A DNA stretch of 64,000 nt from Hyphomicrobiales bacterium. Its GTDB lineage: Bacteria; Pseudomonadota; Alphaproteobacteria; Rhizobiales; OSC116. This document shows positions 2,888 to 41,518 of this stretch, one piece after another. The number at the start of each line of letters is the position of its first letter. Position 1 is the stretch's first letter. Position numbers and translations under genes: made by a program. Location: assembly GCA_013214705.1 (NCBI GenBank), contig JABSRZ010000003.1, positions 401,443 to 465,442 on the forward strand. Reading direction: 5' to 3'. The notes under the pieces were generated by a model, which was not told the DNA's origin, made no database searches, and was given only the letters and a program-made list of their open reading frames with translations.

Positions 2888-3259
2888 TTAGAGGCGGTTG
2901 CCAGTGGCGTAGGATATATGCTTTACAGATTGGTCTATATTTAGCTGCAATTTGTCGCCGGATTTGGCTTTGACTTTGTTGCTAAGCCGGATGATAAGGG
3001 TCAGATCACCGACAAAGCAGGTGGCAAAAATATCTGGGCCGGTATTTTTGGTCGATTGAATTACCACACTTAGTTTGAGACTGGCATTGACACTGAGATT
3101 GCCATTGCTATTTGCCGGATCTGCGATGATAAAATCTTCAGGCCTAATGCCGATAATGATGTTGTTTTCGGCAGGGTTGGTAAGGTTGTTGTTCACGGAA
3201 AATTTTAATTCTGCACCCGTGATTTTGGCCATGCCATCTATTACTTCTGCTGGCCAGCG
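2888..3259 (-). pseudogene. Remnant: C-terminal (TOBE-like) part of a MalK/UgpC-type sugar ABC transporter ATPase. The nucleotide-binding domain is absent.
   Basis: The translation (IGIRPEDF.., ..GDKLQLNIDQSVKHI) matches only the regulatory C-terminal domain of MalK-family ATPases. The frame is closed by a TGA at 3260-3262 with no Walker motifs upstream. Confidence 0.65.
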
Positions 3260-3265
3260 TCATAG

Positions 3266-3553
3266 CAGGCGTTTAGATATATATTCTTGCCATTGGCGCT
3301 GCCGAGTATCAGCGTGGTGGTTATATTGTCATTTATTTACTTGGTTAATGAATATCCCATTGCCTCAATGTTGTTGCACAATGTCGAAGACATGACATTG
3401 GCCGTGGGCATGAGACAATATTTATACCGGCAGAAATATTTATGGGGAGGTTTTGCCGTGGCGGTTTTATCGGTCTTGCCGACGACGATATTATTTCTGG
3501 TTTCGCAACGCTATTTGGTTAGCGGTATGAGTGACGGAGCGGTGAAAGGCTAA
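3266..3553 (+). pseudogene. Remnant: C-terminal about 95 aa of a MalG-type sugar ABC transporter permease
   Basis: The translation ..[56 protein letters not shown] is the canonical C-terminus of carbohydrate ABC permeases. The frame is closed by a TAG at 3263-3265, directly abutting the oppositely oriented ATPase remnant. Confidence 0.7.
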
Positions 3554-3641
3554 ATGGATGATTTGATCATGTAATAGTTGAGATTACAGCTTTAAATTGT
3601 TATAAAACTTATATTGATAGGTATAATTTCATATAATAGTT

Positions 3642-4877
3642 TTGAGTTCGAGATTTGCAATGAAAAAAAAGATCGGAATTACTGTTGTCGGCCAAGGCTT
3701 TGTAGGCCTAGTTAACTTTCTGATTACATTATCTTTTTTAAAATTCTCATCACCAGGTGAATTTGGTGTTTATGCGCTCATATTTTCAATCATGTTATTA
3801 TTTGGTGGCATTCAAAACGCCTTGGTCAACACGCCATTGGCGGTTTATCATGCTGCCGCGCTAGACCACACTCTACAAACCGATATCGACCAATCCATTA
3901 AATTAGTATCTAGAGTGAATAACTTAATGGCGGCGCTGATGGTGTTTTTGGCTTGGTGGTTATTGGCGGGCGCAGATTGGTTGTTTTCGGCTGCAGTTGG
4001 GCTGCTTATCTTGGCCCATCAAGTTCGGGAATATCATAAAAATCGGGCGATTGTCATGGCCGAAGTCACTAAAAGTGCATTGTCTGACATATTATATTCG
4101 GTGATGTTTGTTATGGCGATGGCCTATCTCGCGCAGACTGAGGTGACGGTTGAATATGTTGTTTACAGCCAAATTCTGGCGATGGCCATATCGTCGTTCA
4201 TTTTCATCGGCAGCCCGGTTAAATCTATCGGCATTAAACCGGCATGGCAGACTTACCGGGCGATTTTTACTGATAGTCGCTGGTCATTATTAGGCGTATT
4301 TTCGAGTGAAATACAGTCGCGAGGCTATATTTATATATTGGCATATTTTTTCAGCGCCAATATTGTCGGCCTCGTACAAGCCGGCAAGGTGTTTTTTGGC
4401 CCGCTAAACATGGTGGTTATGGCGTGGGGTAAAATTTATAGGCCTAAATTTGCCAAAATGATTGCGCAGAATGACCCTATCTTAAAAATAATGCTCATCA
4501 GCGCGCTCACTTTTGGCGCTATGAATGCGGTTTTCTATGCACTCGCCATCATCAACTGGGATTTGATATCTGGTTTGATTTTCTCTGACGAATATTCGAA
4601 CGTGAAAATATATTTCAGTCTGTGGAGTGTGGTTTTATTATTTGTGCATTGGCGAACCATCTTATCAATTGTCTGCCAGTCGGCAAAATTATTTAAGCCC
4701 TTGGCTATTATCGGCATGATATCGGTGGTTATTTCTCTGCTAAGTCTGGTGATCATCCTAAACATCAGTGGCGTCGAATTTGTGCCAGTTTCGGTGGTTT
4801 TATCTGAAATATTTTTGGTTATTGGGCTAATAAGCGTGTTGAAAAACCGAGGAGTGGGTGGCCATGCAAGCGCTTAA
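3642..4877 (+). CDS. Polysaccharide/oligosaccharide flippase (Wzx-like, MOP superfamily)
   Basis: A 411-aa polytopic membrane protein with a Wzx-like N-terminus (..FLKFSSPGEFGVYALIFS..). It is the first gene of a glycosyltransferase cluster. An alternative ATG start lies at 3660. Confidence 0.6.
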   Translation: MSSRFAMKKKIGITVVGQGFVGLVNFLITLSFLKFSSPGEFGVYALIFSIMLLFGGIQNALVNTPLAVYHAAALDHTLQTDIDQSIKLVSRVNNLMAALMVFLAWWLLAGADWLFSAAVGLLILAHQVREYHKNRAIVMAEVTKSALSDILYSVMFVMAMAYLAQTEVTVEYVVYSQILAMAISSFIFIGSPVKSIGIKPAWQTYRAIFTDSRWSLLGVFSSEIQSRGYIYILAYFFSANIVGLVQAGKVFFGPLNMVVMAWGKIYRPKFAKMIAQNDPILKIMLISALTFGAMNAVFYALAIINWDLISGLIFSDEYSNVKIYFSLWSVVLLFVHWRTILSIVCQSAKLFKPLAIIGMISVVISLLSLVIILNISGVEFVPVSVVLSEIFLVIGLISVLKNRGVGGHASA

Positions 4878-6138
4878 AACCGGCTCAGATATAGGATATA
4901 GCCACAAAAGATTTGAATTGCCAAATATTCTATTATTTTTAATATCATTATGGGTGTTGGATGTATTTTTGATGGATTTTAGCGTCCATACGCGGGTCGA
5001 TAATGCTGATGATGCTGCCGCTTTTTATGCCTCTGGCGGCATCGGCAACCAAGTGTTTTGGCTGGTTAGTTTTTTGGTTTCGGTGTGGCTGACGGTTAGC
5101 TATAAAGTCATCACTACAGCGGCTATTTTGCACAATTGGGCGCTTATATTATTGATTGGCATTGGCGTGGCTAGCTGTGTTTGGAGCGCCAGCCCATGGG
5201 ATAGTTTCCGCCGTATAATATTGCAAATATTTGTCGCCTATTCATTGTTTGCCGTCATATTTTTAATGCCGTCGCCGAGGGCAATTTTCAACACCATTTA
5301 CCTAGCATTTTGGCTGGTTTTAAGTTTAGATCTGATTTTTTTATGGTTGAACGGCCCACAACTCGACATTGGTTTCCCCGGCATTCATGGCAATAAAAAC
5401 ACATTAGGGTTTGTCGCCGCATCGGCGGTATTTCTCGGCATTGGACTTATTGAAAAGCAGCAAACCAATTTTTTGAAATATATATTCATAGTATTTTGGC
5501 TAATATTGCTATTTATCAGCCAATCTAAAACGTCAATCGCATTATGTTTTGTCGCCATCCTCGCCTATGGGTTGATGCTGAATATCAATAAATTATTACC
5601 CGCCAAACTAACGGCCACACTGCTCGTGGGCATGTTTTTCATCATCATTGGATGGCTGTTATATGCCATCGGCCTGGATGATTTAAATTTGAACAGCCTG
5701 CTGGATGCGCTAGATGATGGAACCTTAACCGGGCGCGCCAAATTATGGAAATTTGCGATTGATTTTCAATTTGAAAATGGCGTATTGGGCTATGGTTATG
5801 GCGCTTTTTGGGGTACGGGAAATTCACCCAACGTCATCTATGGTGATGATTTTATTCAATATATCATACAGGGGCATAATGGTTATTTGGACATTATATT
5901 ACAATTTGGCTATTTGGGATATGTTATTTTAGCTGGCATATTATGTTTTAGTGGCGTGGTTTTAATACGATCTGGCAATTGGGGAGACTGTAATTTCATA
6001 TTATTCTGTTTTTGTTTATTGTTTATTCTGCATAACCTCACTGAAACCAGTATGTTTAGATCCACACATTTTTTATGGCTGATAATGCTGATTGTTTATT
6101 TTATCTACACCCGCGATAGAATGTGGAAAAAAATATGA
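4858..6138 (+). CDS. O-antigen polymerase/ligase family membrane protein (Wzy_C domain)
   Basis: A polytopic membrane protein with the Wzy_C-type loop (..GYGYGAFWG..GHNGYLDIILQFGYLGY..). It overlaps the flippase stop. An alternative ATG lies at 4864. Confidence 0.7.
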   Translation: MAMQALKTGSDIGYSHKRFELPNILLFLISLWVLDVFLMDFSVHTRVDNADDAAAFYASGGIGNQVFWLVSFLVSVWLTVSYKVITTAAILHNWALILLIGIGVASCVWSASPWDSFRRIILQIFVAYSLFAVIFLMPSPRAIFNTIYLAFWLVLSLDLIFLWLNGPQLDIGFPGIHGNKNTLGFVAASAVFLGIGLIEKQQTNFLKYIFIVFWLILLFISQSKTSIALCFVAILAYGLMLNINKLLPAKLTATLLVGMFFIIIGWLLYAIGLDDLNLNSLLDALDDGTLTGRAKLWKFAIDFQFENGVLGYGYGAFWGTGNSPNVIYGDDFIQYIIQGHNGYLDIILQFGYLGYVILAGILCFSGVVLIRSGNWGDCNFILFCFCLLFILHNLTETSMFRSTHFLWLIMLIVYFIYTRDRMWKKI

Positions 6139-7037
6139 AAAACCTTGGCCTCATTAGCGTCTGCCTGTGCACATTTAAACGGCCACATGTGGTGAAAACC
6201 ATTGCCAGCCTCCTCGAGCAGAAATTGCCACCAGATATGCGGCTAGAAATTATAGTTGTCGATAATGATAAACAAAAAAGTGCGCAACAGGCGGTTGAGG
6301 CGATGCAATATGAAACTGTGCCTGTTCGATATTATGCATGCGAGCGGCAAAATATTGCGGCGGCGAGAAATGAAAGTTTGAAAAATGCCGATGGTGAATG
6401 GATAGCTTTCATCGATGATGACGAGATTGCGCAACAAAACTGGTTGATGAACCTATTTGCAACCCAGAAAAAAACCAATGCCGACGCGGTGGTTGGCAAT
6501 GTGATTGGCTTATATCCACCCCATACCCCAGCATGGATAAAAAAGGCTGATTTATTTAGCAAAACCAATAAAGTTGATTGCCAAAAATTGACCACTGCAT
6601 CCACATGCAATATATTAGTTAAAAAACAAACGCTTACAGGGTTGGAATTCTTATTTGATGAGGAATATGGCTTGACAGGCGGTGAAGATGCTGAAATTTT
6701 TAGCCGTATATTTTCTGCTGGTGGCCACATAGTGGCAAGCCCCAAGGCGATTGTTACTGAAATTGTGGAAGATGGCCGGCTTAATATGGCTTATTTAAAG
6801 CTCAGGGCAATCAGAGGCGGCGAATGCTATGCGCGGATATACAATAAGTCGGGTTTTATCAACAAAATCGGGCAGTTAATTTTATCGCTGGTGAAAATTA
6901 TGATTTTCGTTGGTTTGGCGTTGGTTTGTTTGCCATTTGGCAAACCATATTATGTGAGATTCACGTTAAAAGCATGGGCATCATTTGGCCGCTTAAAAGT
7001 TTTATGTGGCTGCAAATTGATACAGATTTACAATTAA
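6123..7037 (+). CDS. Glycosyltransferase family 2
   Basis: The N-terminal GT-A signature ISVCLCTFKRP...LLEQ..., the VVDND and FIDDDE (DXD) motifs, and a C-terminal membrane-associated tail. Confidence 0.85.
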   Translation: MEKNMKNLGLISVCLCTFKRPHVVKTIASLLEQKLPPDMRLEIIVVDNDKQKSAQQAVEAMQYETVPVRYYACERQNIAAARNESLKNADGEWIAFIDDDEIAQQNWLMNLFATQKKTNADAVVGNVIGLYPPHTPAWIKKADLFSKTNKVDCQKLTTASTCNILVKKQTLTGLEFLFDEEYGLTGGEDAEIFSRIFSAGGHIVASPKAIVTEIVEDGRLNMAYLKLRAIRGGECYARIYNKSGFINKIGQLILSLVKIMIFVGLALVCLPFGKPYYVRFTLKAWASFGRLKVLCGCKLIQIYN

Positions 7038-7043
7038 TTTTAT

Positions 7044-7988
7044 TTGTTTTTGGGACCTTATATGACGAGTAAAAACTTATCTCCTATCTGTTTATTCAGC
7101 TATAACCGACTTGATGAGTTGAAACAAACGGTTGAAGCGTTGCAAAAAAATGATTTGGCAAATGAGAGTGAGCTGTTTATTTTTTCAGATGGATGGCGGA
7201 TTGACGAGACAAAGCAAAGGGTTTTGGCGGTGCGCTCATTTGTAAAAACCATTGTCGGTTTTAAAAAAATTACCATTATTGAATCTGAGATCAATATGGG
7301 GTTGGCGACATCTATTATATCGGGGGTGAGTAAAGTTATTGATGAATTTGGCAGCGTAATTGTTGTCGAAGATGATTTAATCACCAGTCCGAATTTTTTA
7401 ACTTTTATGAACGAAGCGCTGATTCATTATAAAAACCGTCAGGATGTGTTTTCTATATCTGGTTATACTGGCATCCTGCAAGCCCTTGATAATTATAGAT
7501 ATGATAGTTATTTATCCTACCGGCCTTGCTCTTCGGGTTGGGCAAGTTGGCAGAACCAATGGGATGATATTGATTGGAGTGTTGAAGATTTTAAGACCTT
7601 TATTAGCGATAGAAAAAAAGTGACCAAGTTTAACCGAGGTGGCATCGATATGGCGCGCATGTTGCGCCATTATTTTGACGGCAAAAATAATTCTTGGGCG
7701 ATAAGATGGTCTTATTCTATGTTTAAGAAAAATAAATATTGCATCTATCCGACTGTTTCTAAAGTGCAAAATATTGGGTTTGGCATTGATGCGACACATT
7801 GCAAGGGGGTGGATATTTATCAAACAACACTAGATCAAACAAATTTAAGCGAGTTTAAATTCAATGATGAAGATAAAGTAGACCCTATAATTGCCAAGCA
7901 ATTCAAATATCGGTTCAGTTACCAAAACAAAGCCCTTAAAACTGCACAATATTACCTGAAGAGGTTTTTTCATGACAAAAAAAGCTAA
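7044..7988 (+). CDS. Putative glycosyltransferase (GT-A-like, family not assigned)
   Basis: It has CLFSYNRLDELKQTVEALQKN..LFIFSDG.. and VVEDDL (DXD-like) motifs and sits among glycosyltransferases. The more likely ATG start is at 7062. Confidence 0.6.
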   Translation: MFLGPYMTSKNLSPICLFSYNRLDELKQTVEALQKNDLANESELFIFSDGWRIDETKQRVLAVRSFVKTIVGFKKITIIESEINMGLATSIISGVSKVIDEFGSVIVVEDDLITSPNFLTFMNEALIHYKNRQDVFSISGYTGILQALDNYRYDSYLSYRPCSSGWASWQNQWDDIDWSVEDFKTFISDRKKVTKFNRGGIDMARMLRHYFDGKNNSWAIRWSYSMFKKNKYCIYPTVSKVQNIGFGIDATHCKGVDIYQTTLDQTNLSEFKFNDEDKVDPIIAKQFKYRFSYQNKALKTAQYYLKRFFHDKKS

Positions 7989-9099
7989 ACTCCTGTGTAT
8001 TTTGCACCTCGCGCCGCCCGCACATGGGGCCGCAAAAGTAGGCGAGTTTGTTGCCAATAGCCAAAAATTACATCATGAATTTGAGTGTAAATATATAACC
8101 ATCCGAACCTCTGACTCGATCGAGAGTTTGCAGCGGTTCAGCCTGAAAAAACTCTATTATGCGGTATATTTGTGGGTTCAAATTTTATTGACTTTGCTAT
8201 TTTTTTGGCCGCAAAAAATATATTTCACTGCCTCGGTAAACGGCTTGGCTTTTTATCGGGATTTGTCGGTATCCCTGTTATGGAAGGCATATTCAGTCTT
8301 CACAAAAGTTGACATATACTATCATTATCACACGCAGGGTGTGGATGAGTTTGTGGCAAAGTCTAATATGAATTTGCAGTTGACGCGGTTTTTACTCAAC
8401 AATGTCAACTTGATATTGTTAAGCCCGATATTGCTTGCAGACTTTAAAAAGGTGCCCACATATAAACAAATATTATATTTGCCAAATGGGGTTGAAGATG
8501 GGTTTGGCGATGAAGAATTTGAGTTATATATCAACGATAAATTCAGAAATACAGGCAAAACTGTAAATATCTTATTTTTATCAAATATGATTAAATCAAA
8601 AGGCTATTTTGAGGTTTTGGAACTCGCAAAATTAAGTGTCGGGAAAAATATTCATTTTAATTTTGCTGGCGCATGGCAATCTAAACAAGACGAGGCCGAA
8701 TTCTATGAATACATTCAAAACAATAATCTTGAACAGACTATAAAATTTCTTGGTTTTGTAAATGAACAGGAAAAACGAAAATTATTGTTAGAATCTAATT
8801 TATTTGTATATCCCACCAAAAATGATGCCTTCCCACTCACAATACTTGAAGCATTGTCGTTCGGAATTCCTTGTATCTCCACGCCAGTTGGCTCTATTCC
8901 GTATATATTGAATAAAGATACGGGAATAATGTTGACTGAGGAGGTGGATTTGCCCACCGCTTTAATTCAGGCTTTATCGGCGTATAATGACAGGTCAACA
9001 GCATTGAATTGCCGCCAAAGATTTAGAGAAAATTTCACTCTCACTATATTTGAAGATAATTTGATCGACATATTAAAAAATCAATTGACCATATATTAG
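7972..9099 (+). CDS. Glycosyltransferase family 4 (GT-B fold)
   Basis: The C-terminal EX7E-type region (FPLTILEALSFGIPCISTPVGSIPYIL) is typical of GT4/GT1-superfamily enzymes. Confidence 0.8.
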   Translation: MTKKAKLLCILHLAPPAHGAAKVGEFVANSQKLHHEFECKYITIRTSDSIESLQRFSLKKLYYAVYLWVQILLTLLFFWPQKIYFTASVNGLAFYRDLSVSLLWKAYSVFTKVDIYYHYHTQGVDEFVAKSNMNLQLTRFLLNNVNLILLSPILLADFKKVPTYKQILYLPNGVEDGFGDEEFELYINDKFRNTGKTVNILFLSNMIKSKGYFEVLELAKLSVGKNIHFNFAGAWQSKQDEAEFYEYIQNNNLEQTIKFLGFVNEQEKRKLLLESNLFVYPTKNDAFPLTILEALSFGIPCISTPVGSIPYILNKDTGIMLTEEVDLPTALIQALSAYNDRSTALNCRQRFRENFTLTIFEDNLIDILKNQLTIY

Positions 9100-9165
9100 G
9101 ATCAACATGTATTTGCGCAACAATAGCCGCTATATTGGTATATAATTAGGGATAGATGTTTTCAT

Positions 9166-9912
9166 ATGCCAGCCATTCAACCCATCCTCAAAATGCGTGT
9201 TTCGGTTACGAATTTAGCCGCGTGCCTGCAACAGGTTATGGAACTTGCTGGCAAAAAAAAGGCTGCATATATTTGCTTGTCTAATGTCCATATGTGTATG
9301 TTAACATTCGATAATGATCGGTTCTTAAAAATTGTAAATGATGCGGATTTGGTTATACCGGACGGCAAGCCGATAAGTGTTGCTCAACGGCTACTTGGCC
9401 ACAAACGAGCGCAACAAGTGCGCGGACAAGACATTATGAACGCCATTTGTGCAAGCTCTGGTGAATATAAGTTAAAAATTGGGTTTTATGGTGGTTCGTC
9501 AGATCCACTGCTTAACAAAATGATCAGCAAGCTAAAGTCTGTTCATACGGGCATACAAATTGCCTATGTTTATGCGCCGCCGTTCCGACCGCTTACTGCT
9601 GCTGAAGACATTAATGTATGCGATGAAATTAACCGCGCCAATGTTGACATATTATTTGTTGGGATTGGCTGCCCGAAACAAGAAATTTGGATGGAACAAC
9701 ATAAGCAAAAATTAAATTGCGTTATGCTAGGTGTTGGTGCGGCATTTGATTTTATCGCTGGTAACCAAAAACATGCGCCAAAATGGATGCAAGAAATTGG
9801 TGTGGAATGGCTGTATAGATTATGTAATGAACCCAAGCGTTTGTGGAAACGTTACTGCCGACAAAATCCACGATTTATTTACCATTTCATACACCAACTT
9901 ATACGCAATTAA
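9166..9912 (+). CDS. WecG/TagA/CpsF family glycosyltransferase
   Basis: Family-typical blocks PDGKPI..RGQD.., FYGG.., ILFVGIGCPKQEIWM, GVGAAFDFIAG..APKWMQEIGVEWLYRL..EPKRLWKRY. Confidence 0.88.
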   Translation: MPAIQPILKMRVSVTNLAACLQQVMELAGKKKAAYICLSNVHMCMLTFDNDRFLKIVNDADLVIPDGKPISVAQRLLGHKRAQQVRGQDIMNAICASSGEYKLKIGFYGGSSDPLLNKMISKLKSVHTGIQIAYVYAPPFRPLTAAEDINVCDEINRANVDILFVGIGCPKQEIWMEQHKQKLNCVMLGVGAAFDFIAGNQKHAPKWMQEIGVEWLYRLCNEPKRLWKRYCRQNPRFIYHFIHQLIRN

Positions 9913-10058
9913 TGAGATATCTGGCAACAATGTGGGTGGTTTTACCGCATTGGCGAAAGTGCCTGAAGGCGATAAGACATTGTTATTGACAGAGAAGTAA
10001 TCGGCTTATATGCCTTTAGTTAGAACTCATAGATTAAAATAATCAAAGCGGATCATAT

Positions 10059-11438
10059 ATGACTGAATATCAACCGATTAAAATCAATTGTTTTAAAGCC
10101 TATGATATACGTGGAAAATTAGGCAGCGAACTGAACGTTGATATTGCTTACCGCATCGGCCGGGCTTTTGGCCAGCATTTAAAGCCTAAATCTGTAGTGG
10201 TTGGCGGTGATATTCGCCTCACCTCTGCCGAACTCAAAAATGCACTAGCCGACGGCTTAAGAGATGCTGGTGTTGATGTGATTGACCTTGGCCAAACCGG
10301 CACCGAAGAAATATATTTTGCGACATCATATCTTGAATTAGATGGCGGGGTGGAAGTGACAGCAAGCCACAACCCGATGGATTATAACGGTTTAAAACTG
10401 GTCAGCAAAGGGTCTCGCCCGATTAGTGGCGACACTGGTTTGCTAGACATAAAAGCTTTGGCCGAAAGTGGAAAATTTATAGAGGTTAAAACCAAAGGCA
10501 GCTTAACCCATACATCTGTAATGGATGCCTATATACAGCATTTACTGGGTTATATTGACGCCGGAAATATAAAACCGATGAAGCTTGTGGTCAATGCCGG
10601 CAATGGCGCAGCAGGCGCGGTGATAGATGCACTTGAACAAAAATTTAAACAATTGAAAATTCCGTTAGAATTTATAAAAATTCATCACCAACCTGATGGT
10701 AATTTCCCGAATGGTATTCCCAACCCATTGCTGCCTGAAAATAGGCAAGCCACTATTGATGCCGTATTGGCACATAAAGCCGACCTAGGCATAGCTTGGG
10801 ATGGCGATTTTGACCGCTGCTTCTTGTTTGATGAGACTGGAAAATTCATCGAAGGCTATTATATAGTTGGTTTGTTGGCCGAAGCTTTTTTACAAAAAAA
10901 TGCCGGGGCAAAAATTATCCATGACCCGCGATTGGTGTGGAATACCATCGAAAAAGTCGAACAAGCTGGCGGTGAGGCCATACAAAGCAGAACCGGGCAT
11001 GCTTTTATAAAACAATTAATGCGCGAAAAAGACGCGGTTTATGGCGGTGAGATGAGCGCTCATCACTATTTCAAACAATTTTTTTATTGCGATTCTGGCA
11101 TGATACCGTGGTTGTTAATTGTCGAATTATTATGCGTAAAATCGGCCACATTATCATCGCAGGTTAAAGATGCGATGGCCGCCTACCCTTCGCCGGGTGA
11201 AATTAACCGCACCGTCGATGATGCCGACATGGTGGTTGAAAAAATTATGCATATATACCAAGCAGATGCGCTGAATATAGACCATACGGACGGCATTAGT
11301 GTCGATATGGGGCAATGGCGGTTCAGCTTGCGCAAATCTAACACAGAGCCGCTTATACGGTTGAATTTGGAAACCCGCGGTGACCGGAAACTTATGAAAA
11401 TTAAAACCGCTGAATTGCTAGCGCTTATTGAAGGTTAA
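10059..11438 (+). CDS. manB: Phosphomannomutase (ManB/CpsG-type alpha-D-phosphohexomutase)
   Basis: Phosphoserine loop [13 protein letters not shown], metal loop [10 protein letters not shown], sugar loop [10 protein letters not shown]. It looks collinear end to end with enterobacterial ManB/CpsG as I recall that sequence. Confidence 0.92.
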
Positions 11439-12088
11439 AAAGCGTTTTGAGGTTTATATAAAGCCGGCAGCGTCAGCCATATAATGCGCATATCGGCGGT
11501 GAGTGATTTTTTAGAAATATATTCGCAATCAGATTGCAGCCGATCTAATATTTTTTTGCGGGTGTCGGTAGGGCCTCTAAAGCCTCTAATTTGTGCCAGC
11601 CCGGTTATGCCGGGTTTGGTTTTAAAACGTTCGCCATAATTGCTTAAAGTTTTGATGTAGGTTTCGTCCATCTCGACCGCGTGCGGCCTTGGCCCAACAA
11701 TCGACATATCGCCTCGAAAAACGTTATACAATTGTGCCAACTCATCTAAGCTAAATTTACGCAAGAAACCACCAACACGGGTGACCCGGCTGTCATTGGT
11801 GACACACTGCGAAAACTCACTTTCGCCACTTGAAACAGTCATGGTGCGAAATTTGAGTATTTCAAAAGTCTTGCGGTGCAGGCCGTAGCGCTTCTGGCGA
11901 AAAAACACCGGGCCTTTTGAATCTAGTTTCACCATGATGGCAATAGATATCATCAGGGGTGATAAAAGCAATAGACCAGATGCAGAAATAATCAGATCGA
12001 AGGCTCTATAACCGGCATATTTTAACTTTTTTGTTGATTTCGATTCAACTTGCTCGATTTTTTTATTTAGATACGCCATACAACCCAA
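11435..12088 (-). CDS. Small monotopic polyprenyl-phosphate sugar phosphotransferase (bacterial sugar transferase family, ExoY/WbaP C-terminal type). Likely the priming enzyme.
   Basis: One N-terminal TM helix, then ..[19 protein letters not shown]..., [22 protein letters not shown] and PGITGLAQI motifs. Confidence 0.88.
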
Positions 12089-12339
12089 TAAAATAAAAAA
12101 CGGTTAAACATCCATTAAATGAATGTGTTAATAGATTATTAATAATTCAACCTAGCCAGTTTGTCAAATAATTTGGATGTCGGGGCGGGGCACAATAGGA
12201 TTTTCTTGGTTAATACAGCCTGTGATTGTGGCGTTAACATTTGCTAATAATCTCCCACAATTGGCTGTATTTATTGGTTGTAGGGACTATATTATGGCAA
12301 ACTCAAGGTTGTGAGCAGATGAAATAATCGCAGTTGAGT

Positions 12340-13068
12340 TTATGAAGGTGTCGGAATGACGCCAAGTGCAGCGGTTGACGGGTTGTCAATTAGTTCGGCC
12401 AGTTGCTGTTGTATTTCTTGGCTTAGATCTGCATTGATAATAGCTTCTAAAATATCATCCAACGCTTGAGGAGCCGCAATCAAGGCCGCTTGCACAGCCT
12501 GAACGGCCAATGATGGTGTCACCGCCACAACGGCTTGTACAACATTTGCCGCCAGACTAGGCACGGCTGTGACGACTGCGCCAACCACAGAGGCTAACAA
12601 TTGCGGGGTTTCAGTGGCAACAGCTGTCAGAACTTGGTTTAGGATGGCAGGGTGCAAAACCGCCACATCGGCGATAATTGACGCCAATGAGCCAGAAGCC
12701 GTGGTTGCCAACAAGCCAACCACATCGGCAATTGTGCTGGTCGGGCCGCTAGCCAACAGTTCTAATTGTGCCAAAACCGCCACATTTAAGTTTGAATTTT
12801 TGGCTGCATTTATTAACTGCGCGACGGCAATGCGATTTTGCGCAGCAGAAATTTGGATATGTGCATCGACACAGGCGGCACTGGTTTCATCTACACAAAT
12901 GGCTGCAAGGTTTGCATTTAATTGCGCAATTAGGCCAGTGTCTTCGGCAATGTTTGCGCTGGCAATGCTGGCAACAGCAAAGGTTGAAAATGCTGCAAAA
13001 CTTGCAAAAACGATAGAAATAGGCTTCAGCATTTTACCACTTTCAAACCAGTGTTTGGCAATAATCAT
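12340..13068 (-). CDS. Secreted Ala/Val/Leu-rich protein of unknown function with proline-punctuated helical repeats
   Basis: A signal-peptide-like N-terminus (..FAAFSTFAVASIASA|NIAE), one Cys pair, and a C-terminal half made of P-x-L..VV.AVV-type repeats. I recognise no family. An alternative start lies at 13032. Confidence 0.5.
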   Translation of the reverse strand: MIIAKHWFESGKMLKPISIVFASFAAFSTFAVASIASANIAEDTGLIAQLNANLAAICVDETSAACVDAHIQISAAQNRIAVAQLINAAKNSNLNVAVLAQLELLASGPTSTIADVVGLLATTASGSLASIIADVAVLHPAILNQVLTAVATETPQLLASVVGAVVTAVPSLAANVVQAVVAVTPSLAVQAVQAALIAAPQALDDILEAIINADLSQEIQQQLAELIDNPSTAALGVIPTPS

Positions 13069-13227
13069 TTGCTTTCATTAGCTATTTTTAATTTACGGGT
13101 ATGGTTGGAGTCAAGCGTTTAATCAAATATAAATAGATTAGTATTTATTATAATTGCAAAGACAGCTTGTTTTGTTGGTGTTATTATTTTCATAAACTTA
13201 CGAAATATATGTAAAGAAACTGGGCTA

Positions 13228-14010
13228 ATGTTTGAATATCTCAAAACAATTTTTAGTTGGATAAAAATTCAACCGCCGGCCTCTAGGGTGGGCGTTATGT
13301 CGTTTGACCGGGCCAAAACAAAAGCCAATCAACTGGTATTTGCGGTTGGTGATATACATGGTTGCGACCAATTGTTGAATGATGCCATTAGCTTAATTAA
13401 AGCCAAAATGGAGCAGTTGAGCGAGACTGAAGATAATTTATACCATATTGTATTTTTGGGTGATTATATCGACCGAGGGCCGAATTCTCGACTGGTCATT
13501 GAGCGCTTAATGAGTTTAAACATCGATAAATGCGAAATTCATTGCCTAAAAGGCAATCACGAAGACATTTTGCTTAATTTCATCAAATCTCCACAAAAAT
13601 ATTTTCAGCTTTTCAAGCAGATTGGTGGCATCGCCACGCTCAATAGCTTTGGGATAATGGATGTTGAAGCCCACAGGGCTGAACAAATTAGCGCCAAACT
13701 TGTTGAGGCCATGGGCATCGAGATGTTGGTTTTTTTGACGCAATTGCCGACTTATTACTCACATGAAGATTATTTCTTTTGCCATGGCGTGCCCAAAGCT
13801 GGCATCGCGCTTAGCCAACAGCCAGATAAAATATTAATCAATAACCGGCATGAAGCATCGCCGTTTTATGAGCAAATTGTCATTCATGGCCATGTCTCAT
13901 CTGATAAAGTCGAGCGAGATGGATCGAAGATTAATATTGACACTGCTGCCTATGTCACTGATAATTTAACAAAATTACTGGTTTATAATTATAATCAAAT
14001 AATTTTATAG
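13228..14010 (+). CDS. PPP-family metallophosphoesterase (PrpA/PrpB/ApaH-like Ser/Thr/Tyr protein phosphatase)
   Basis: All three PPP signature motifs are present: GDIHG, GDYIDRG, GNHE. It lies 35 nt upstream of the tyrosine autokinase gene on the same strand. Confidence 0.85.
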   Translation: MFEYLKTIFSWIKIQPPASRVGVMSFDRAKTKANQLVFAVGDIHGCDQLLNDAISLIKAKMEQLSETEDNLYHIVFLGDYIDRGPNSRLVIERLMSLNIDKCEIHCLKGNHEDILLNFIKSPQKYFQLFKQIGGIATLNSFGIMDVEAHRAEQISAKLVEAMGIEMLVFLTQLPTYYSHEDYFFCHGVPKAGIALSQQPDKILINNRHEASPFYEQIVIHGHVSSDKVERDGSKINIDTAAYVTDNLTKLLVYNYNQIIL

Positions 14011-14044
14011 AATAGTATGAAGCGGTTAAATTAGGGATTATGAC

Positions 14045-16264
14045 GTGGTGGATGATCAAAATATGTTCAAATTCAGTGAGTCAGAAATAATAAAAACCCC
14101 GCCAAATCACGCTCAAACTAAAAATTTAGTGGATTATTGGCACGTTTTAGTGCGGCAAAAAAAATATCTATTATTTACCATCTTGTTGCTTCTGCTGGTT
14201 GGCATGCCGATAATTTATAACCTCACCCCCATCTACCAATCTACTGCCAAAATGGTAGTGGATGCTGGCCAAGCTAAACTTGTCGGTTTGCAAACTGAAA
14301 ATACGACTGGTGCGGCGATTGATTTTAAAGTGAATACCGAAGTTGAAATCATCAAATCCAATAAAGTATACCTTCGCACCATCAAACATTTGCAATTATG
14401 GAATAGTGCCGACTATAATTTACTGTCTTTCGGTGAAAAGTTATTATCCTTATTTGCTACTGACAAAAGCCAAAAACCTAGAGATGAATATCGAACTTTT
14501 AGCCAATTATCTGGCCAAGACATTATGGGCTATTTAAAAGCCTTGAACGACCATGTCACTGTGGCGAGAATCCGCCGCACTAATGTGATAACCATAGGCG
14601 TTATATCCCCCTCGGCTAACAGAGCTGCGGACATAGCTAACAGCTTAACCCGCTCATATTTAGCCGAAAAAATAGAAAACAAAGCTAATTCCATGCGCGG
14701 CGTTGCCGAAATATTGAAAAATCAGTTGAATAAATTGGCTATCGAAATTCAGAATTTTGACCGCCAACGCGAAAATTTTATAACTGAATATGCAGACCAA
14801 ATATCCGACCCAAATGCCGGCAAAATACTTGCGGAATTGCGCGCAACAATCGACTTGAAAACACAAGAGACATTGCGCAAAATACTAGAGGTTTCGGAAA
14901 TTGGCCGGGCGGCATTGGCCAAAGACTATTTTGCGCTGGCGTCCTTGACTGAAGACCTGCAATTTGGTGCATTATTCAGCCAATATGAAAGCATTAATTT
15001 TCAATTATCAGCCCCTCGCCCTGCTGATGACAGCCAATTTAACCTGCAACAAGAATTGCAAAAAATTGAAGCCAATTTTGAACTATTGTCCCAACAAATG
15101 CAAAATAAATTAAACGCTGAAATATTCGCTAACCAAGCGCAAATTGCAGAGTTTCAGACCAATAGAATTCATATTTTTTCGGCCTATGATTTGCCGCAAG
15201 ATGTGCAAATGGCATTGTATAGATTGACTGAGGGTATCAAAAGCAAGCGTAATTTATATGCAAGTGAGGTGAAAAAATATAGCGAAGTGGAACAAAAAAT
15301 AGGCATTCTTATACCTGACGTGCGGGTGATCGCGACGGCGTTCCCGCCTGAGGCGGCCATTAAGCCCAATAAAAAACTATTGGCAGCCGGCTTGCTTATA
15401 TTTGCGGTTTTTTGTGGGCTTATATTGGCTTTTATGCGCGATGAATTTATTGGTGGATTTGTTTCTAGCGACCAAGTGCATGCGGTATTGGGCAAACAGC
15501 CGATTAGTGTCATACCCACGCACACCAATGAAGATGACGATAACATTATATTAAATGCGCCATTATCTCGATTTTCTGAATCAATACGCATGTTGAGGGT
15601 TGGCTTGGACAACCACAGCCTCAATAATAATGTATTCGACCAACGCGCCAAAATTATCGCTGTCACTTCGACAGTGCCAGAAGAAGGCAAAACTACCACC
15701 GCTTTATGTTTAGCCAGATCCTACTCTTTGGCCGGTAAAAAAACCATATTGGTTGAATTGGATTTTAGACACCCAGTGCTAAATGAGCGGCTGGCGCTAA
15801 ATGAGCGGCTGGGGCTAAATAGACCCTACAGCCTGCAAGATTTTATCAAGCAGGATGCCGATATGGCGATGATTGACAAAATTATTTATGTTGAACCAGC
15901 CACAAATCTTAGCATTGTTTTGGCTGGTGCGGCGCAAAAAACTGCAACTGATATTTTGATCCAATCGAAATCATTAGAGGGCGTTATCAGCAAATTTTCA
16001 AAAGATTTTGAAATTATAATTATAGATACGCCACCCGTTGGTTTGGTGGTTGATGGCCAAATTATTGCGCAAAAAGTAGATCAAATGGTCTATGCCATCA
16101 AACATGCCGCGACCAGCCAAAAAAACGTATTGGCCGGTATAAATTTCATCAATGCTGCCACCGTAGACCTGCCTGTTTTTACCATCATCACCCAGTTGGA
16201 TGACAGCCAAGCAGGGTATTTTGGCATGTATGGGGTCGAATATTCCTATTATTATGGCGGATAG
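14045..16264 (+). CDS. Polysaccharide co-polymerase / tyrosine autokinase (Wzc/ExoP/GumC type, PCP-2a)
   Basis: N-terminal Wzz-type TM plus a periplasmic coiled region, then a second TM. The C-terminal BY-kinase domain has Walker A (VPEEGKTTT), Walker A' (ILVELDFRHP), Walker B (IIIIDTPP) and a terminal Tyr cluster (YFGMYGVEYSYYYGG). Confidence 0.9.
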   Translation: MVDDQNMFKFSESEIIKTPPNHAQTKNLVDYWHVLVRQKKYLLFTILLLLLVGMPIIYNLTPIYQSTAKMVVDAGQAKLVGLQTENTTGAAIDFKVNTEVEIIKSNKVYLRTIKHLQLWNSADYNLLSFGEKLLSLFATDKSQKPRDEYRTFSQLSGQDIMGYLKALNDHVTVARIRRTNVITIGVISPSANRAADIANSLTRSYLAEKIENKANSMRGVAEILKNQLNKLAIEIQNFDRQRENFITEYADQISDPNAGKILAELRATIDLKTQETLRKILEVSEIGRAALAKDYFALASLTEDLQFGALFSQYESINFQLSAPRPADDSQFNLQQELQKIEANFELLSQQMQNKLNAEIFANQAQIAEFQTNRIHIFSAYDLPQDVQMALYRLTEGIKSKRNLYASEVKKYSEVEQKIGILIPDVRVIATAFPPEAAIKPNKKLLAAGLLIFAVFCGLILAFMRDEFIGGFVSSDQVHAVLGKQPISVIPTHTNEDDDNIILNAPLSRFSESIRMLRVGLDNHSLNNNVFDQRAKIIAVTSTVPEEGKTTTALCLARSYSLAGKKTILVELDFRHPVLNERLALNERLGLNRPYSLQDFIKQDADMAMIDKIIYVEPATNLSIVLAGAAQKTATDILIQSKSLEGVISKFSKDFEIIIIDTPPVGLVVDGQIIAQKVDQMVYAIKHAATSQKNVLAGINFINAATVDLPVFTIITQLDDSQAGYFGMYGVEYSYYYGG
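15779..15820. repeat. In-frame 18-bp tandem repeat (2.3 copies) inside the autokinase gene
   Basis: CTAAATGAGCGGCTGGCG / CTAAATGAGCGGCTGGGG / CTAAAT encodes LNERLA-LNERLG-LN immediately after the Walker A' motif. Confidence 0.9.
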
Positions 16265-16277
16265 GAAATTAGTGAAA

Positions 16278-16967
16278 ATGAAAGCCGTTCGACTATATTT
16301 TAAATATATTTTGCCGTTAATGTTGGTGGTTTTTTTAGGCCGGGAGGTGACAATATTTATTGCCACACCCAATGAGTATATTTTGGAGGCTGTGAGTTTC
16401 TTTGAACCAGCTAAACTTAAAAATGATCAGTTTAAGGCCGGGCTGGTGACAATGATAAAGCCGTTTATTGCCAATCGAAAAATTGTTCATTCGCAATATA
16501 AATCTTGTCACCATGACTTGATACGTTATGAGATTTTTGAGAAAACTTTATTTGCCGACCAGCTAATTAACTGCCTAGATATATTGGACAGCGCGCTTAT
16601 TGCAGCGCCCAGCTCGCCGCTTATATGGCTCGAGAAAGCCAATTTGCAGGCTAAAAACCCCGCTACAATTGATGGGTTAAACAAATCGCTACACAATGCG
16701 TGGCAAGTGGCCAAAAGACAGGCTTGGGTTGCGATTAGGCGCATTGAGTTTAGCCTGAATCATTGGCAAATATTGAATGCTGAAAATCGCCAAATTGCTG
16801 AACAGGAATTTCTATTTTATGCGCCACAGAAGCGCGAATTGGTTAGAATACTGGCTCATCAATATTTGCTAAAACCTCAGCTTAAAAATATCATTTCAAC
16901 TTGGGTCGGAAATTCAAATTTAGCCGTTCAGCGCCAATTTATTGCTGACATTAATTCCACACGCTAA
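16278..16967 (+). CDS. Hypothetical membrane-anchored protein (one N-terminal TM helix)
   Basis: The ORF track gives 16200-16967. The ATG at 16278 avoids overlap with the kinase gene and precedes a hydrophobic segment (ILPLMLVVFLG). I recognise no family. Confidence 0.5.
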   Translation: MKAVRLYFKYILPLMLVVFLGREVTIFIATPNEYILEAVSFFEPAKLKNDQFKAGLVTMIKPFIANRKIVHSQYKSCHHDLIRYEIFEKTLFADQLINCLDILDSALIAAPSSPLIWLEKANLQAKNPATIDGLNKSLHNAWQVAKRQAWVAIRRIEFSLNHWQILNAENRQIAEQEFLFYAPQKRELVRILAHQYLLKPQLKNIISTWVGNSNLAVQRQFIADINSTR

Positions 16968-16983
16968 AACGAACTATATGACA

Positions 16984-18369
16984 TCAGCTAAATTTGGGGT
17001 TTTTACGCCCTTTTTGATTGAATGACAGGCTGACCAAAATGGAGCTAAATAAGGCAATGGCAGGTATTTGCAGGGTGAAATCTAATGATGCATGCACCAT
17101 CATCGATGTAATTATCGCGATGGCCGGCAGGGTTAATTGCCAATTGGCAGATGAGCGAACGCTGCGCCTCACCAGATGAATAAACAGCCATATAATCAGA
17201 ATATAACTGATTAACATGACAGGCAAACCTAAGGTGAGCATCAACTCCATATGGGTGGAATGTAATTTGTTCCAAACCATGCCATCGTTTACATTAAACA
17301 TATGAAACAGGGGTTCGACATCGATATATGTCCCCGCTCCATAGCCTAAAATAGGCCGTTCGAATATGGCAGAAACGGCATCGGCAATTAAATAAAGCCG
17401 CGCTTGGGTGCTGCCGATGGCGCTGTTACCACCGCGGTTTTCGGCAAGATAATATAGCGCAATGGCGGTGAGTATAAAGGCGGCTAAAATGACCAAATAT
17501 AATGGCCATGGTCTATGTGAATTTTGTAGATTTGGCTTGCGCTTATGTTGTTTTCGGACTCCATAAATGACAATAAACAATATCAAAAACAGGCCAATTA
17601 AAGTCGAAACCACCCCGCCGCGTGACCCGGTTAAAATTTGCGCTAGGCTTAAAATAATGAAATTGGCGGAGAATATAAATATTTGGGTTTCGCGGTTTAG
17701 GGTCTTGAGCCACGATTTTTTATGCACTATCAGTTCTAACAGATATACTGCACAAATAATCATACCAAAGCCGATGAAATTGGCGGCGGCATTTTTATAG
17801 ACAAATGTCGCGGTTAGCCAGCCGTTAAAATAGATTTTATCGACAATGCCAAGCGTTTGAAACTCAAATAAATAAGTAACCAGGCCAAATATTGTGATGA
17901 GGTTAATGATTATTAGACATATCAATTGCAACTTTAACGCCGCTTTTAAATCGGCGATTGCCATATAGATGCCGATCAAAACCACCGACAGGCTTAAATA
18001 GCCCATGAGTGCGCCCCACGTTAGGCCAGAATTAAGGCTCACAGCACCACCTGTTTGCAAGCCCAGTTGTTGCCAAATCGGATGGTGTAAAAATTGCGGT
18101 GTATATGATGATGCCTGAAAGATCATCCATAATGGGATGGCCATAAACATAAAAATAATTATATATCGGGTGTTATTTTGGGCGGTATTTATCAACTGGT
18201 TTAACTTGCCAGAAAGAGCAAACAGAAAAATGGCACAGGCTGCCAAAGCTAAATTGATAATTTCGAAAATATGCCGATTGCCGCCCAACAAAATCGGCGA
18301 AGTGACCAGCATAATGATTAAAGTGATGCGGCTAAGTTTGTAAGCCTGAACGGGTGATATAAAAGTCAT
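16984..18369 (-). CDS. Second O-antigen ligase/polymerase family membrane protein (Wzy_C domain, ExoQ/WaaL-like)
   Basis: A 461-aa polytopic membrane protein with a large loop containing ..GYGAGTY..LHSTHMELMLTLGLP.., typical of the O-antigen ligase family. Confidence 0.7.
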   Translation of the reverse strand: MTFISPVQAYKLSRITLIIMLVTSPILLGGNRHIFEIINLALAACAIFLFALSGKLNQLINTAQNNTRYIIIFMFMAIPLWMIFQASSYTPQFLHHPIWQQLGLQTGGAVSLNSGLTWGALMGYLSLSVVLIGIYMAIADLKAALKLQLICLIIINLITIFGLVTYLFEFQTLGIVDKIYFNGWLTATFVYKNAAANFIGFGMIICAVYLLELIVHKKSWLKTLNRETQIFIFSANFIILSLAQILTGSRGGVVSTLIGLFLILFIVIYGVRKQHKRKPNLQNSHRPWPLYLVILAAFILTAIALYYLAENRGGNSAIGSTQARLYLIADAVSAIFERPILGYGAGTYIDVEPLFHMFNVNDGMVWNKLHSTHMELMLTLGLPVMLISYILIIWLFIHLVRRSVRSSANWQLTLPAIAIITSMMVHASLDFTLQIPAIALFSSILVSLSFNQKGRKNPKFS

Positions 18370-18394
18370 ATTGGCAGATCAAATAAGCTTGCGT

Positions 18395-18811
18395 TTAGAG
18401 AGATTTAGCATCAAAGCTAAAGTTTTCATCAAACAATTCGAGTGTTTTTTGTGGGTCGCCGGCAGCTTTTTCTTCGATAACCCGCTAGACCATAGATTTG
18501 GCAAATGGCACACCGCAGGATTTGATGGCTTGCAAATCACACGGTGCTAAAAAATGGGTTTGGCCTAAATCTCCAACTTTTCTGGCGGAAACGGCATCTA
18601 TACTGCCCAAAACTATTCCATCGGATCGCTTTACATGGTCTGAAGGGTCGGTCATTTCGCAAATGTCGCGCACCAAGGACGCCTCTTTGCTGGTGATGTC
18701 GACAATTTGGCCATCATGCACTGTCACGACAGAGGGGCCTTGTTCCGCGGCATTCCATAACCGCCCCAACAGCAAAGCTTCATTTGGTAAAAAACTCATT
18801 ATAACCTCCAC
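18395..18811 (-). pseudogene. Truncated fumarylacetoacetate-hydrolase-family gene. Only the N-terminal part remains, and it carries an in-frame TAG.
   Basis: The translation MSFLP..LLGRLW..GPSVVTVHDGQIVDITS..LAPCDLQAIKSCGVPFAKSMV*RVIEEKAAGDP.. is interrupted by an in-frame stop at 18485-18487. It ends at a TAA at 18395-18397 after about 138 codons. The FAH catalytic domain is absent. The family assignment rests on recalled sequence similarity. Confidence 0.55.
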
Positions 18812-18941: not shown

Positions 18942-19684
18942 TTAAGAGAAGTGCTGCATCAACATGGCGGTGAAGGATTTGGCATTCAAAGATGGCGGCG
19001 CGGCTTCAAGTTGGATGATCAGATAATTCCAAATTATCGCGGGGATGAAAGGTTTTATGACGATATCCGTATCTTGGCTACTGGTAGCAAGTGGGTCGAG
19101 AATTGATATGCCTGCGCCCGTCCTTACCAGCTCATATATCGTTTTTTGGGTTCTGGTCTCGATTAACAATTCGCGATCTATTTTTGCCTGATTAAAAACA
19201 TTGTCGATTAAATTGCGAAACGGGCTAGGTTTTGCCCAATCATCGAAACAACGCCAATGTCAAAACGCCGGGCGCGTATCATTTTTAGAGCTTGGGTATT
19301 GGGCGCGGTTTCCAGTTCAATGCTGACTTTTGGGTAGCGTTTGGTAAATAGCGCAATCAACGCTGGTAAAAAGCTTTCTAAACAAACAGGCATTGCTACG
19401 ATGCGCAAACTGCCCTGTTGTTAATTGGCAATAATTTCTGCGGCTCCTCGTATTTCTTCTAAGCCGATAAAAGCTCTTTCTAGCTCACTATATAGCGCCT
19501 GTACCTCTGGCGTTGGCTCTAAGCGATTGGGTTTGCGGATAAAAAATTGCAAACTGGTATTATATTCAAGGTCAGAAATGAGCCGGTTGATGGCTGGCTG
19601 GGTGCTGAATAACATCTTTGCGACCTCGCTGCTCGAGCCGGTGTCCATGACAGCTCTAAACGCTTCTAATTGTCGGAAATTCAT
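18942..19684 (-). pseudogene. LysR-family transcriptional regulator pseudogene (one in-frame TAA plus at least one frameshift)
   Basis: Three consecutive ORF pieces cover the gene: 19421-19684 (HTH), 19208-19408 and 18942-19169 (effector domain). The first two are in the same frame, separated by a TAA at 19421-19423. The third is in a different frame. Confidence 0.8.
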
Positions 19685-20564: not shown

Positions 20565-20601
20565 AGCTTTATTTTTATCAATTTTTTTAAAAGAGTCCGC
20601 T

Positions 20602-24390: not shown

Positions 24391-24403
24391 TTAGGTATAT
24401 TTT

Positions 24404-34784: not shown

Positions 34785-34786
34785 AT

Positions 34787-39330: not shown

Positions 39331-39388
39331 TTTTTCTCCAAATATCGAATTGTTTCTTGACGCAGATGTTAAATCAATTATATATAAA

Positions 39389-41507: not shown

Positions 41508-41518
41508 GGATTAATGAT

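Follow-up and report, generated by a model that had tools for sequence, protein, structure and literature searches.

How did a 15-kb block of polysaccharide genes come to stand among broken genes? The question is posed by positions 3554 to 18394 of a 64,000-nucleotide stretch of DNA, here called the window (contig JABSRZ010000003.1 of assembly GCA_013214705.1, positions 401,443 to 465,442, forward strand). The block is a chromosomal set of genes that would make an exopolysaccharide (EPS), capsule, or O-antigen-like polymer, in an uncultured marine member of the Hyphomicrobiales related to the OCS116 cluster. The original prediction described it as a replaced or acquired serotype-type locus. 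Analysis now points to a composite history: the block is probably a lineage-typical Wzx/Wzy-dependent cluster of rhizobial design, in which a conserved core adjoins an exchanged cassette, in a neighbourhood marked by several independent deletions and point inactivations.

Open reading frames (ORFs) were scanned throughout the window: all those of at least 80 amino acids (aa) in positions 1-25342, and nearly all those of at least 120 aa beyond 25342. Families were assigned by Pfam and NCBIfam profile searches, and some by PDB matches. They show that 3660-18369 is a polysaccharide cluster of the Wzx/Wzy type, rhizobial in design (Pss/Exo-like), with the following features:

3660-4877, plus strand: candidate Wzx flippase, 405 aa, divergent member of the MOP superfamily (about 11 hydrophobic segments)
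4864-6138, plus strand: candidate Wzy-type polymerase, polytopic (Pfam Wzy_C, E 1.6e-12; hydrophobic-segment scan)
6135-7037, plus strand: GT2 glycosyltransferase (Pfam Glycos_transf_2, E 2.6e-23)
7062-7988, plus strand: second, weak GT2-like glycosyltransferase (Pfam Glycos_transf_2, E 6.6e-7; GC 36.5%, in the lowest-GC part of the cluster)
7972-9099, plus strand: GT4 glycosyltransferase (Pfam Glycos_transf_1, E 3.5e-22; GC 36.1%)
9166-9912, plus strand: WecG/TagA/CpsF glycosyltransferase of family GT26 (Pfam Glyco_tran_WecG, E 8e-57; NCBIfam TIGR00696), last gene of the variable block
9944-10054, plus strand: manC remnant of 37 codons with two in-frame stops
10059-11438, plus strand: manB, an intact CpsG-type phosphomannomutase gene (Pfam PGM_PMM I-IV), first gene of the conserved core
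11435-12079, minus strand: priming polyprenyl-phosphate hexose-1-phosphate transferase (Pfam Bac_transf, E 2e-62)
12340-13068, minus strand: protein X, Ala/Val-rich and of low complexity, with an N-terminal hydrophobic segment and no family match
13297-14010 (alternative start 13228), plus strand: PssZ-like metallophosphatase of the PPP family (Pfam Metallophos, E 1.5e-12; NCBIfam PrpE/PrpA-like)
14045-16264, plus strand: Wzc/ExoP/PssP-type polysaccharide co-polymerase (class PCP-2a) and tyrosine autokinase, or BY-kinase (Pfam Wzz, GNVR and AAA_31; NCBIfam TIGR01005 and TIGR01007)
16278-16967, plus strand: protein Y, with one N-terminal transmembrane segment and no family match, directly downstream of the kinase gene
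16984-18369, minus strand: second Wzy_C protein, of the O-antigen ligase/polymerase family, polytopic (Pfam Wzy_C, E 1.1e-14), last gene of the cluster

The history of this cluster is best read through its relatives, which are comparable only at about 75-95% aa identity. A matching core arrangement lies in L024, a metagenome-assembled genome (MAG) of the OCS116 cluster. There the order is manC, manB, a Bac_transf gene (minus strand), a small ORF (minus), wzc (plus), and a 230-aa ORF (plus), matching the window in both order and orientation. Amino-acid identities to L024 are 79% for ManB, 57% for the transferase, and 56.5% over the full length for Wzc. Y shares 45% over 223 aa with an ORF in the same position, directly after the kinase gene; X is weakly conserved (28% over 125 aa of a 160-aa ORF), again in the same position.

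Elsewhere around manB, gene content differs. In locus L026, a WecG-GT4-GT2-Wzy_C block comes after manC-manB, inverted and beyond manB instead of before it. Identity to the window is 55% for the second GT2 and 49% for the GT4 enzyme, and only 34% for WecG; wzx, wzy, the first GT2 gene, the phosphatase gene, and the second Wzy_C gene have no counterpart in L026. Locus L027 has manC-manB without such a cluster. Moreover, the chromosomal position of the locus differs in every relative seen. These different gene sets indicate that manB anchors a variable polysaccharide region, whose right half is the core and whose left half is variable.

All three of these relatives have manC immediately before manB. 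In the window, the 146-bp gap between wecG and manB contains the manC remnant, which matches ManC residues 407-444 of 472, the point at which the relatives' manC ends. Short as it is, the match is distinct (tblastn E 4e-4; Smith-Waterman scores of 81-84, where shuffled sequences average about 25.6, z about 14; a single frame matches). Because this stump lies at the boundary between variable block and core, manC was evidently truncated at that junction, and manB is left without its partner at this locus. As read from the sequences, the scar is the best evidence that the left cassette, wzx to wecG, was exchanged or rearranged by recombination or deletion. The truncation in the left half probably marks a cassette swap.

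This suggests a general scheme. The core (manB, the priming transferase, X, perhaps the phosphatase, wzc and Y) would have kept the order that it has in relatives; the variable cassette (wzx, wzy, three glycosyltransferase genes and wecG) probably replaced an earlier one, with loss of most of manC at the junction. The exchange would have occurred through recombination or deletion, not through a mobile element. Five gene remnants lie in the window, in the order malK-type, malG, manC, FAH and LysR. Those outside the cluster would reflect separate events: a deletion internal to a mal locus; a deletion of the 3' part of the FAH gene; and a stop codon plus a frameshift in the LysR gene.

The families also suggest how the polymer could be made. 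The short Bac_transf enzyme would transfer hexose-1-phosphate onto polyprenyl phosphate, and the two GT2 enzymes, the GT4 enzyme, and WecG would then assemble the repeat unit. The divergent MOP protein would flip the unit across the inner membrane. One Wzy_C protein would polymerise it, whereas the other might be a ligase; the Wzc-type autokinase would control chain length and export.

Most of these assignments agree with the original gene list, which proves essentially correct by Pfam and NCBIfam. Its flippase, however, lacks a direct match; its unassigned glycosyltransferase is the weak GT2 protein; its phosphatase is of the PPP type rather than the Wzb type; and X and Y were omitted from it. 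The priming transferase scores 275-294 bits with NCBIfam models for the WcaJ/EPS_sugtrans C-terminal domain (294 for WcaJ), and is of the short PssA/ExoY-like form, with a catalytic domain and one transmembrane segment. The BY-kinase contains a GK[ST] P-loop and a Tyr-rich C-terminal tail (YGVEYSYYYGG). X and Y, which flank the phosphatase-kinase pair, gave nothing credible in direct family searches up to E 10.

The flippase candidate required a longer route. Neither Pfam nor NCBIfam matches the protein directly, even at E up to 10, and a full HMMER scan of 1.84 billion representatives recovered 980 homologues. Three of 60 sampled homologues match Polysacc_synt or Polysacc_synt_3 (best E 2.6e-9), and a profile of the family matches the MATE transporter BH2163 in PDB (E 0.0016). 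The protein thus is a candidate for a divergent MOP/Wzx flippase.

Several points weigh against the proposed combination of conserved core and exchanged cassette. A same-species genome with a different cassette was not found: database and metagenome searches recovered only the same organism, in several assemblies. The case for replacement therefore comes from the manC scar and from relatives at a greater distance, not from direct observation. In the alignments with relatives that the original prediction proposed, synteny ends at livK on the left and at the LysR gene on the right. The likeness to L024 is one of gene order and of genes compared singly. Except for manB, the core genes are only 28-57% identical to those of L024, far below the liv genes (70-96% identical to those of relatives L002-L004), and so exchange may have reached the core as well. 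The flippase is assigned indirectly, as just described, and is a candidate. No outer-membrane export protein (Wza/OPX, Poly_export) was found in any ORF scanned across the 64 kb, nor any manC other than the remnant, so the pathway as seen in the window is incomplete; the export protein and manC may be encoded elsewhere in the genome. Finally, going by sequence, the product could be an EPS, a capsule, or an O-antigen.

Base composition bears on the history as well. GC content is 40.6% across 3554-18394, 43.1% in the left flank, and 46.4% in the 45.6 kb to the right. Mean gene GC is 41.2% for the 13 cluster genes and 46.8% for 42 other genes (Mann-Whitney p=1.8e-5); the corresponding GC3 values are 42.2% and 46.9% (p=4e-4). 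GC content is lowest (36-37%) over the GT2/GT4 genes and in the vicinity of the phosphatase gene. Tetranucleotide distance to a right-flank reference is 0.191 for the cluster versus 0.150 +/- 0.018. The cluster thus is significantly richer in AT, and differs from the right flank by all three measures, but the original description of it as markedly AT-rich relative to its flanks is too strong. The shift is modest, and there is no compositional step at the left edge. Tetranucleotide usage deviates as much in the left liv genes (0.19-0.21) and in a hybrid sensor kinase gene near 48 kb (0.217). Some ordinary genes in the window are equally low in GC (MCP, 42.0%; the hybrid kinase, 41.8%). Because the hybrid kinase gene equals the cluster in both GC and tetranucleotide deviation, such values are not island-specific in this genome. 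The same dip appears in the polysaccharide loci of relatives: wzx/wzy-side genes in L024 are 37.5-44% GC (flanking genes, 47-49%), and the glycosyltransferase, Wzy_C, and neighbouring unassigned genes in L026 are 34-38% GC (manCB, 43-44%).

The alternative that survives best is that no exchange took place. The locus would be an old, vertically inherited one, its low GC content a product of membrane-protein and glycosyltransferase composition together with weak selection, and the remnants would be unrelated decay. GC1 and GC2 of the cluster genes are lowered as much as GC3, as this explanation would have it. The equally low GC content of the MCP and hybrid kinase genes, the conservation of the core in L024, and the presence of several pseudogenes nearby also speak for it. 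Nevertheless, manC is truncated exactly at the boundary of the variable genes, and these genes are wholly different or rearranged among relatives whose ManB is still 79% identical. Core proteins other than ManB are far more divergent than ManB and the liv proteins, and the chromosomal site is the same in none of the relatives seen. On balance, the absence of exchange is possible but doubtful.

A second alternative is recent horizontal acquisition en bloc. Here a 15-kb foreign island, possibly gammaproteobacterial, would have entered by illegitimate recombination between a sugar ABC transporter gene and the FAH gene, destroying both. This could account for the compositional differences from the right flank; for the fact that every cluster protein is alone in its 90%-identity cluster, save for fragments of the same organism; for the end of synteny at livK and LysR; and for an FAH gene cut right at the border. 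It draws its hint of a gammaproteobacterial source from ManB, which struck the original prediction as enterobacterial-like. The resemblance is genuine with respect to type: ManB matches the NCBIfam CpsG model NF011943 over its full length with 721.3 bits (below the 801-bit cutoff; the next model scores 393 bits), the NCBI annotation names it CpsG, and it is about 67% identical to Klebsiella CpsG. With respect to kinship the resemblance fails. The nearest proteins, 76-80% identical, come from MAGs labelled 'OCS116 cluster', 'Hyphomicrobiales', and 'Alphaproteobacteria'; they are followed, at 66-71%, by CpsG proteins of gammaproteobacteria and enterics (enterics, 66-67%). A neighbour-joining tree places ManB in one clade with four related alphaproteobacterial MAGs, not with the enterics. 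The resemblance does not point to a recent enteric origin.

The left border is equally instructive. The cluster is preceded by these features:

1713-2813, plus strand: livK, periplasmic branched-chain amino-acid binding protein (Pfam Peripla_BP_6, E 1e-62), the last gene on the left that is syntenic with relatives
2888-3259, minus strand: remnant of a MalK/UgpC-type sugar ABC ATPase gene, encoding the C-terminal regulatory domain, with about 120 of roughly 360 codons left
3260-3553, plus strand: remnant of a malG-type permease gene, its 3' third (NCBIfam MalG model positions 199-296 of 296, E 1.5e-37; Pfam BPD_transp_1, E 2.9e-6)

An intact terminator-like hairpin (2836-2863) follows livK. The ATPase remnant matches positions 257-347 of 357 in the NCBIfam UgpC model (E 1.3e-6), Pfam OB_MalK (E 1e-3), and AlgS residues 277-354 in PDB. 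It meets the malG remnant head to head, the two abutting within about 40 bp (3217-3260). The malG remnant retains its native stop codon (3551-3553), and an ordinary intergenic space of about 100 bp separates this from the first cluster gene. Divergent transcription of malK and malE-malF-malG is the arrangement of the malB region in Escherichia coli. If the ancestral mal locus was likewise divergent, a single deletion, from inside malK to inside malG, would have removed both 5' parts together with everything between. That deletion lies within the mal locus and leaves the cluster untouched, since malG has kept both its native 3' end and its stop codon. One deletion in a divergent malK/malEFG locus thus explains the left remnants. 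The original prediction was right that fragments of a dead sugar ABC system lie at the left boundary, but they are not insertion marks.

Beyond livK, relatives offer no further synteny. Three of them (L002-L004) share the liv operon, with LivK 84-86% identical, yet share nothing downstream and carry unrelated genes instead. (A LivK query in the JGI metagenomes recovered nothing above 50% identity.) Each of the three contains a tRNA-Gly(GCC) gene about 0.2-4 kb downstream of livK, at 11257-11331 in L002, 9471-9545 in L003, and 14895-14969 in L004. Since these genes occur in two orientations, and the window has none, the region after livK has been rearranged repeatedly in this group.

At the right border, the neighbouring genes are both defective:

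18398-18799, minus strand: remnant of an FAH-family gene, its N-terminal part (about 138 codons out of roughly 383), interrupted by an in-frame stop at 18485-18487
18942-19684, minus strand: LysR-type regulator pseudogene, nearly full length (Pfam HTH_1, E 1.6e-13), with a stop at 19421-19423 and one frameshift (six-frame reading)

The FAH remnant aligns with residues 12-140 of the 383-residue protein 9kkt_B in PDB (E 1.9e-11). As originally noted, this gene is truncated at the border: the cut is at 18398, near residue 138, and 28 bp from the start codon of the second Wzy_C gene. FAH is the only gene truly truncated at a border of the cluster. A search for homologues of the remnant found only the protein itself and short fragments at 48-58% identity, of no use for context.

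The LysR pseudogene is divergent from an intact gene for a TauE-type exporter and a gene for a protein of the cysteate sulfo-lyase/D-cysteine desulfhydrase family (PALP), which together occupy 19785-21609. Its orthologue is intact beside TauE and a cysteate sulfo-lyase-like gene in loci L029-L031, at 76-77% aa identity. The LysR-TauE-PALP trio is conserved in other loci, but nothing to the left of the trio there matches the window. One such locus (L029/L030; JALJPN010000006.1; ENA BOEU19 scaffold_47) is 76-83% identical to that of the window at the aa level (PALP, 83%). A sugar-acid cluster in decay adjoins it on the left, with fragments of GD_AH (galactarate/altronate dehydratase), FAA_hydrolase (86 aa, C-terminal FAH), and Amidohydro_2; both contigs break off some 7 kb from PALP on that side, 1.2-1.3 kb past the last called gene. 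Both NCBI assemblies place this second locus in the same MAG, and it was rejected as an independent outgroup for that reason. Either the copy is paralogous, or it points to a second population or mixed bin.

Acquisition by a mobile element would be expected to leave other traces, and the original prediction found no integrase, tRNA gene, or insertion sequence. Each search bears this out. ARAGORN detected no tRNA or tmRNA gene in the 64 kb; the ORFs scanned in the window include no integrase, recombinase, or transposase; Rfam yielded nothing at gathering scores; and repeats around the borders (14-28 nt) are at chance level only, with none that is att-like or that bounds the block.

Taken together, these observations make acquisition en bloc unlikely. 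ManB groups with alphaproteobacteria of its own lineage, and the core gene order recurs in L024. The compositional shift amounts to some 1-2 standard deviations, lacks a left step, and is common to relatives. The mal deletion stopped short of the cluster, no att-like repeats frame it, and the internal manC scar shows the block to be composite. What stands of the original prediction is an exchangeable locus without mobility genes, as indicated by the manC stump and by the different gene sets around manB; what the evidence speaks against is a 15-kb block that arrived whole and lodged between two genes that it destroyed, given the shared core order, a ManB that is at home in this group, a mal deletion internal to its own locus, a single gene (FAH) cut at the border, and a mild AT shift.

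The weakest alternative is that chimeric joins in assembly or binning created the arrangement. The window proteins are residue-for-residue matches to those of two NCBI MAG assemblies (NRB13159-13171 and MCJ8322842-54), labelled Rhizobiales or Hyphomicrobiales bacterium, and the same layout is present in a 963-kb ENA scaffold and a Logan contig. Such recurrence in independent assemblies indicates that the layout is not a one-off assembly product. The label BOEU19 in the ENA record names hints at a metagenome of abyssal sinking particles (PMC6575173). Two independent assemblies do stop within the FAH remnant, at 18445 and 18482 (76 and 113 bp past the Wzy_C start): a Logan contig of SRR7648326, and an ENA scaffold from another sample. 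Heterogeneity in the population, or a problem of coverage at this junction, may lie behind the breaks. Although the sequence comes from MAGs, although two assemblies break there, and although the MAG holds a second LysR-TauE-PALP locus with 83% PALP identity, an artefact is very improbable, as a single Logan contig contains the left junction and most of the cluster, the 963-kb ENA scaffold and the 1.83-Mb NCBI contig both span the right junction, and a contig from another sample, 99.88% identical, likewise shows the Wzy_C-FAH junction as far as 18445. (The length of the 1.83-Mb contig raised the idea of a strongly reduced genome; this was dropped, since the accession numbers of its proteins run over more than 2,700 entries.)

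Within the core, the phosphatase-kinase pair merits separate attention. Directly upstream of wzc, the 237-260-aa phosphatase contains the PPP motifs GDIHG, GDYIDRG, and GNHE. The PssZ protein of the Rhizobium leguminosarum Pss-I region is a 263-aa PPP phosphatase with motifs GDXHG, GDXVDRG, and GNHE, and is needed for EPS production (PMC6071215). The window protein is PssZ-like in the sense of motifs and location: it has all three motifs, a length of about 240-260 aa, and a place within an EPS cluster. It is also the sole phosphatase there; neither the Wzb (LMW-PTP) nor the CpsB (PHP) type is present in the cluster. Its gene is absent from L024 and lies in a low-GC patch, and so may be an addition to the core.

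Homologues of this phosphatase were found by tblastn on 379 plasmids, mostly alphaproteobacterial, of which three were examined. Plasmid p1 of Azospirillum sp. TSH100 (L049, 5866-9005) carries one directly upstream of a tyrosine autokinase gene, beside an O-antigen-ligase-family gene whose product is 24% identical to the second Wzy_C protein of the window. The hypothetical gene that follows the Azospirillum kinase gene has no detectable similarity to Y. In Thalassobaculum, the plasmid homologue lies in a polysaccharide cluster; in Sphingomonas, it lies beside wecB and wecC. One might imagine that the PPP phosphatase, the Wzc-type kinase, X, and Y, without a nearby Wza-type exporter, form a distinct alphaproteobacterial module for export and regulation. 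The PssZ-like phosphatase would be the partner of the kinase, in place of Wzb or CpsB, and X, Y, or both would assume part of the periplasmic or outer-membrane export role. This idea is speculative, and on present evidence rather unlikely to be correct.

The remainder of the window resembles ordinary chromosome: genes for a cysteate-type sulfo-lyase, ergothioneine, a MATE pump, an MCP, myo-inositol catabolism, a sugar ABC system, a hybrid kinase, and catabolism of leucine and branched-chain keto acids. At 23137-25342, an EgtB-like gene (DinB_2 and FGE-sulfatase) adjoins an EgtD-like gene (Methyltransf_33), suggesting ergothioneine synthesis. A probable myo-inositol catabolic set occupies 33798-42676 (KduI/IolB, a PfkB kinase, a TPP enzyme, GFO/IDH/MocA oxidoreductases, a xylose-isomerase-like barrel, and a class II aldolase) and is followed by a LacI regulator gene and then the sugar ABC system. 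The hybrid histidine kinase, encoded at 48803-52294, has 1163 aa (two CHASE3 matches, HAMP, HisKA, HATPase, receiver, and Hpt).

What does this locus contribute? Wider significance is limited, but a typical mosaic surface-polysaccharide locus is now documented in marine Hyphomicrobiales related to OCS116, a poorly known group. The locus also illustrates that broken genes at the edge of such a cluster are not necessarily traces of insertion: one pair here goes back to a single deletion in a neighbouring mal locus, and it is the manC stump, within the cluster, that is informative. Annotation gains five pseudogenes that automated calls overlook or enter as small hypothetical proteins. Experiments might be worthwhile on two points only: the recurrence of a PssZ-like phosphatase with a BY-kinase, and the partners X and Y.

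Among known systems, the machinery is most like that of R. leguminosarum Pss-I (pssA, pssL, pssT, pssP, pssN, and pssZ). Shared elements are a short priming Bac_transf enzyme; a co-polymerase/autokinase that combines Wzz, GNVR, and a P-loop; Wzy_C proteins; a MOP-type flippase candidate; several glycosyltransferases; and a PPP-family phosphatase within the cluster, as with PssZ (PMC6071215). Two differences are evident. First, the window lacks an outer-membrane export protein of the PssN/ExoF type, and X and Y flank the kinase. Second, a CpsG-type manB is present and manC is destroyed. The same differences hold with respect to the exo genes of Sinorhizobium meliloti (exoY, exoP, exoQ, exoT, and exoF), a cluster of otherwise comparable design.

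Enterobacterial O-antigen and colanic acid loci, with manC-manB corresponding to cpsB-cpsG, are comparable in their CpsG-type manB and their Wzx/Wzy logic. These loci also have low-GC wzx, wzy, and glycosyltransferase genes, and remnant genes at their junctions. Nonetheless, the window ManB scores 721 bits, below the 801 cutoff, and its closest relatives are alphaproteobacterial; manC is dead; flanking genes of the galF/gnd type are absent; and rhizobial counterparts are the match in type for the kinase, the phosphatase, and the priming enzyme.

A further comparison is with replacement flexible ('glycotype') islands of marine Alteromonas and Pelagibacterales, whose exchange is ascribed to homologous recombination in two reports (PMC4033161, PMC11898729). 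As described there, these too are surface-polysaccharide clusters of lower GC content, without mobility genes, in which gene content varies around conserved genes. The manC stump, at the boundary between cassette and core, would correspond to a junction scar at a conserved gene. Glycotype islands are defined by comparing strains of one species at a fixed site; here the relatives compared are more distant, and even the chromosomal site differs. With that distinction, the locus is probably a variable, recombination-exchanged surface-polysaccharide locus of an already-known kind, akin to the replacement flexible islands of marine bacteria.

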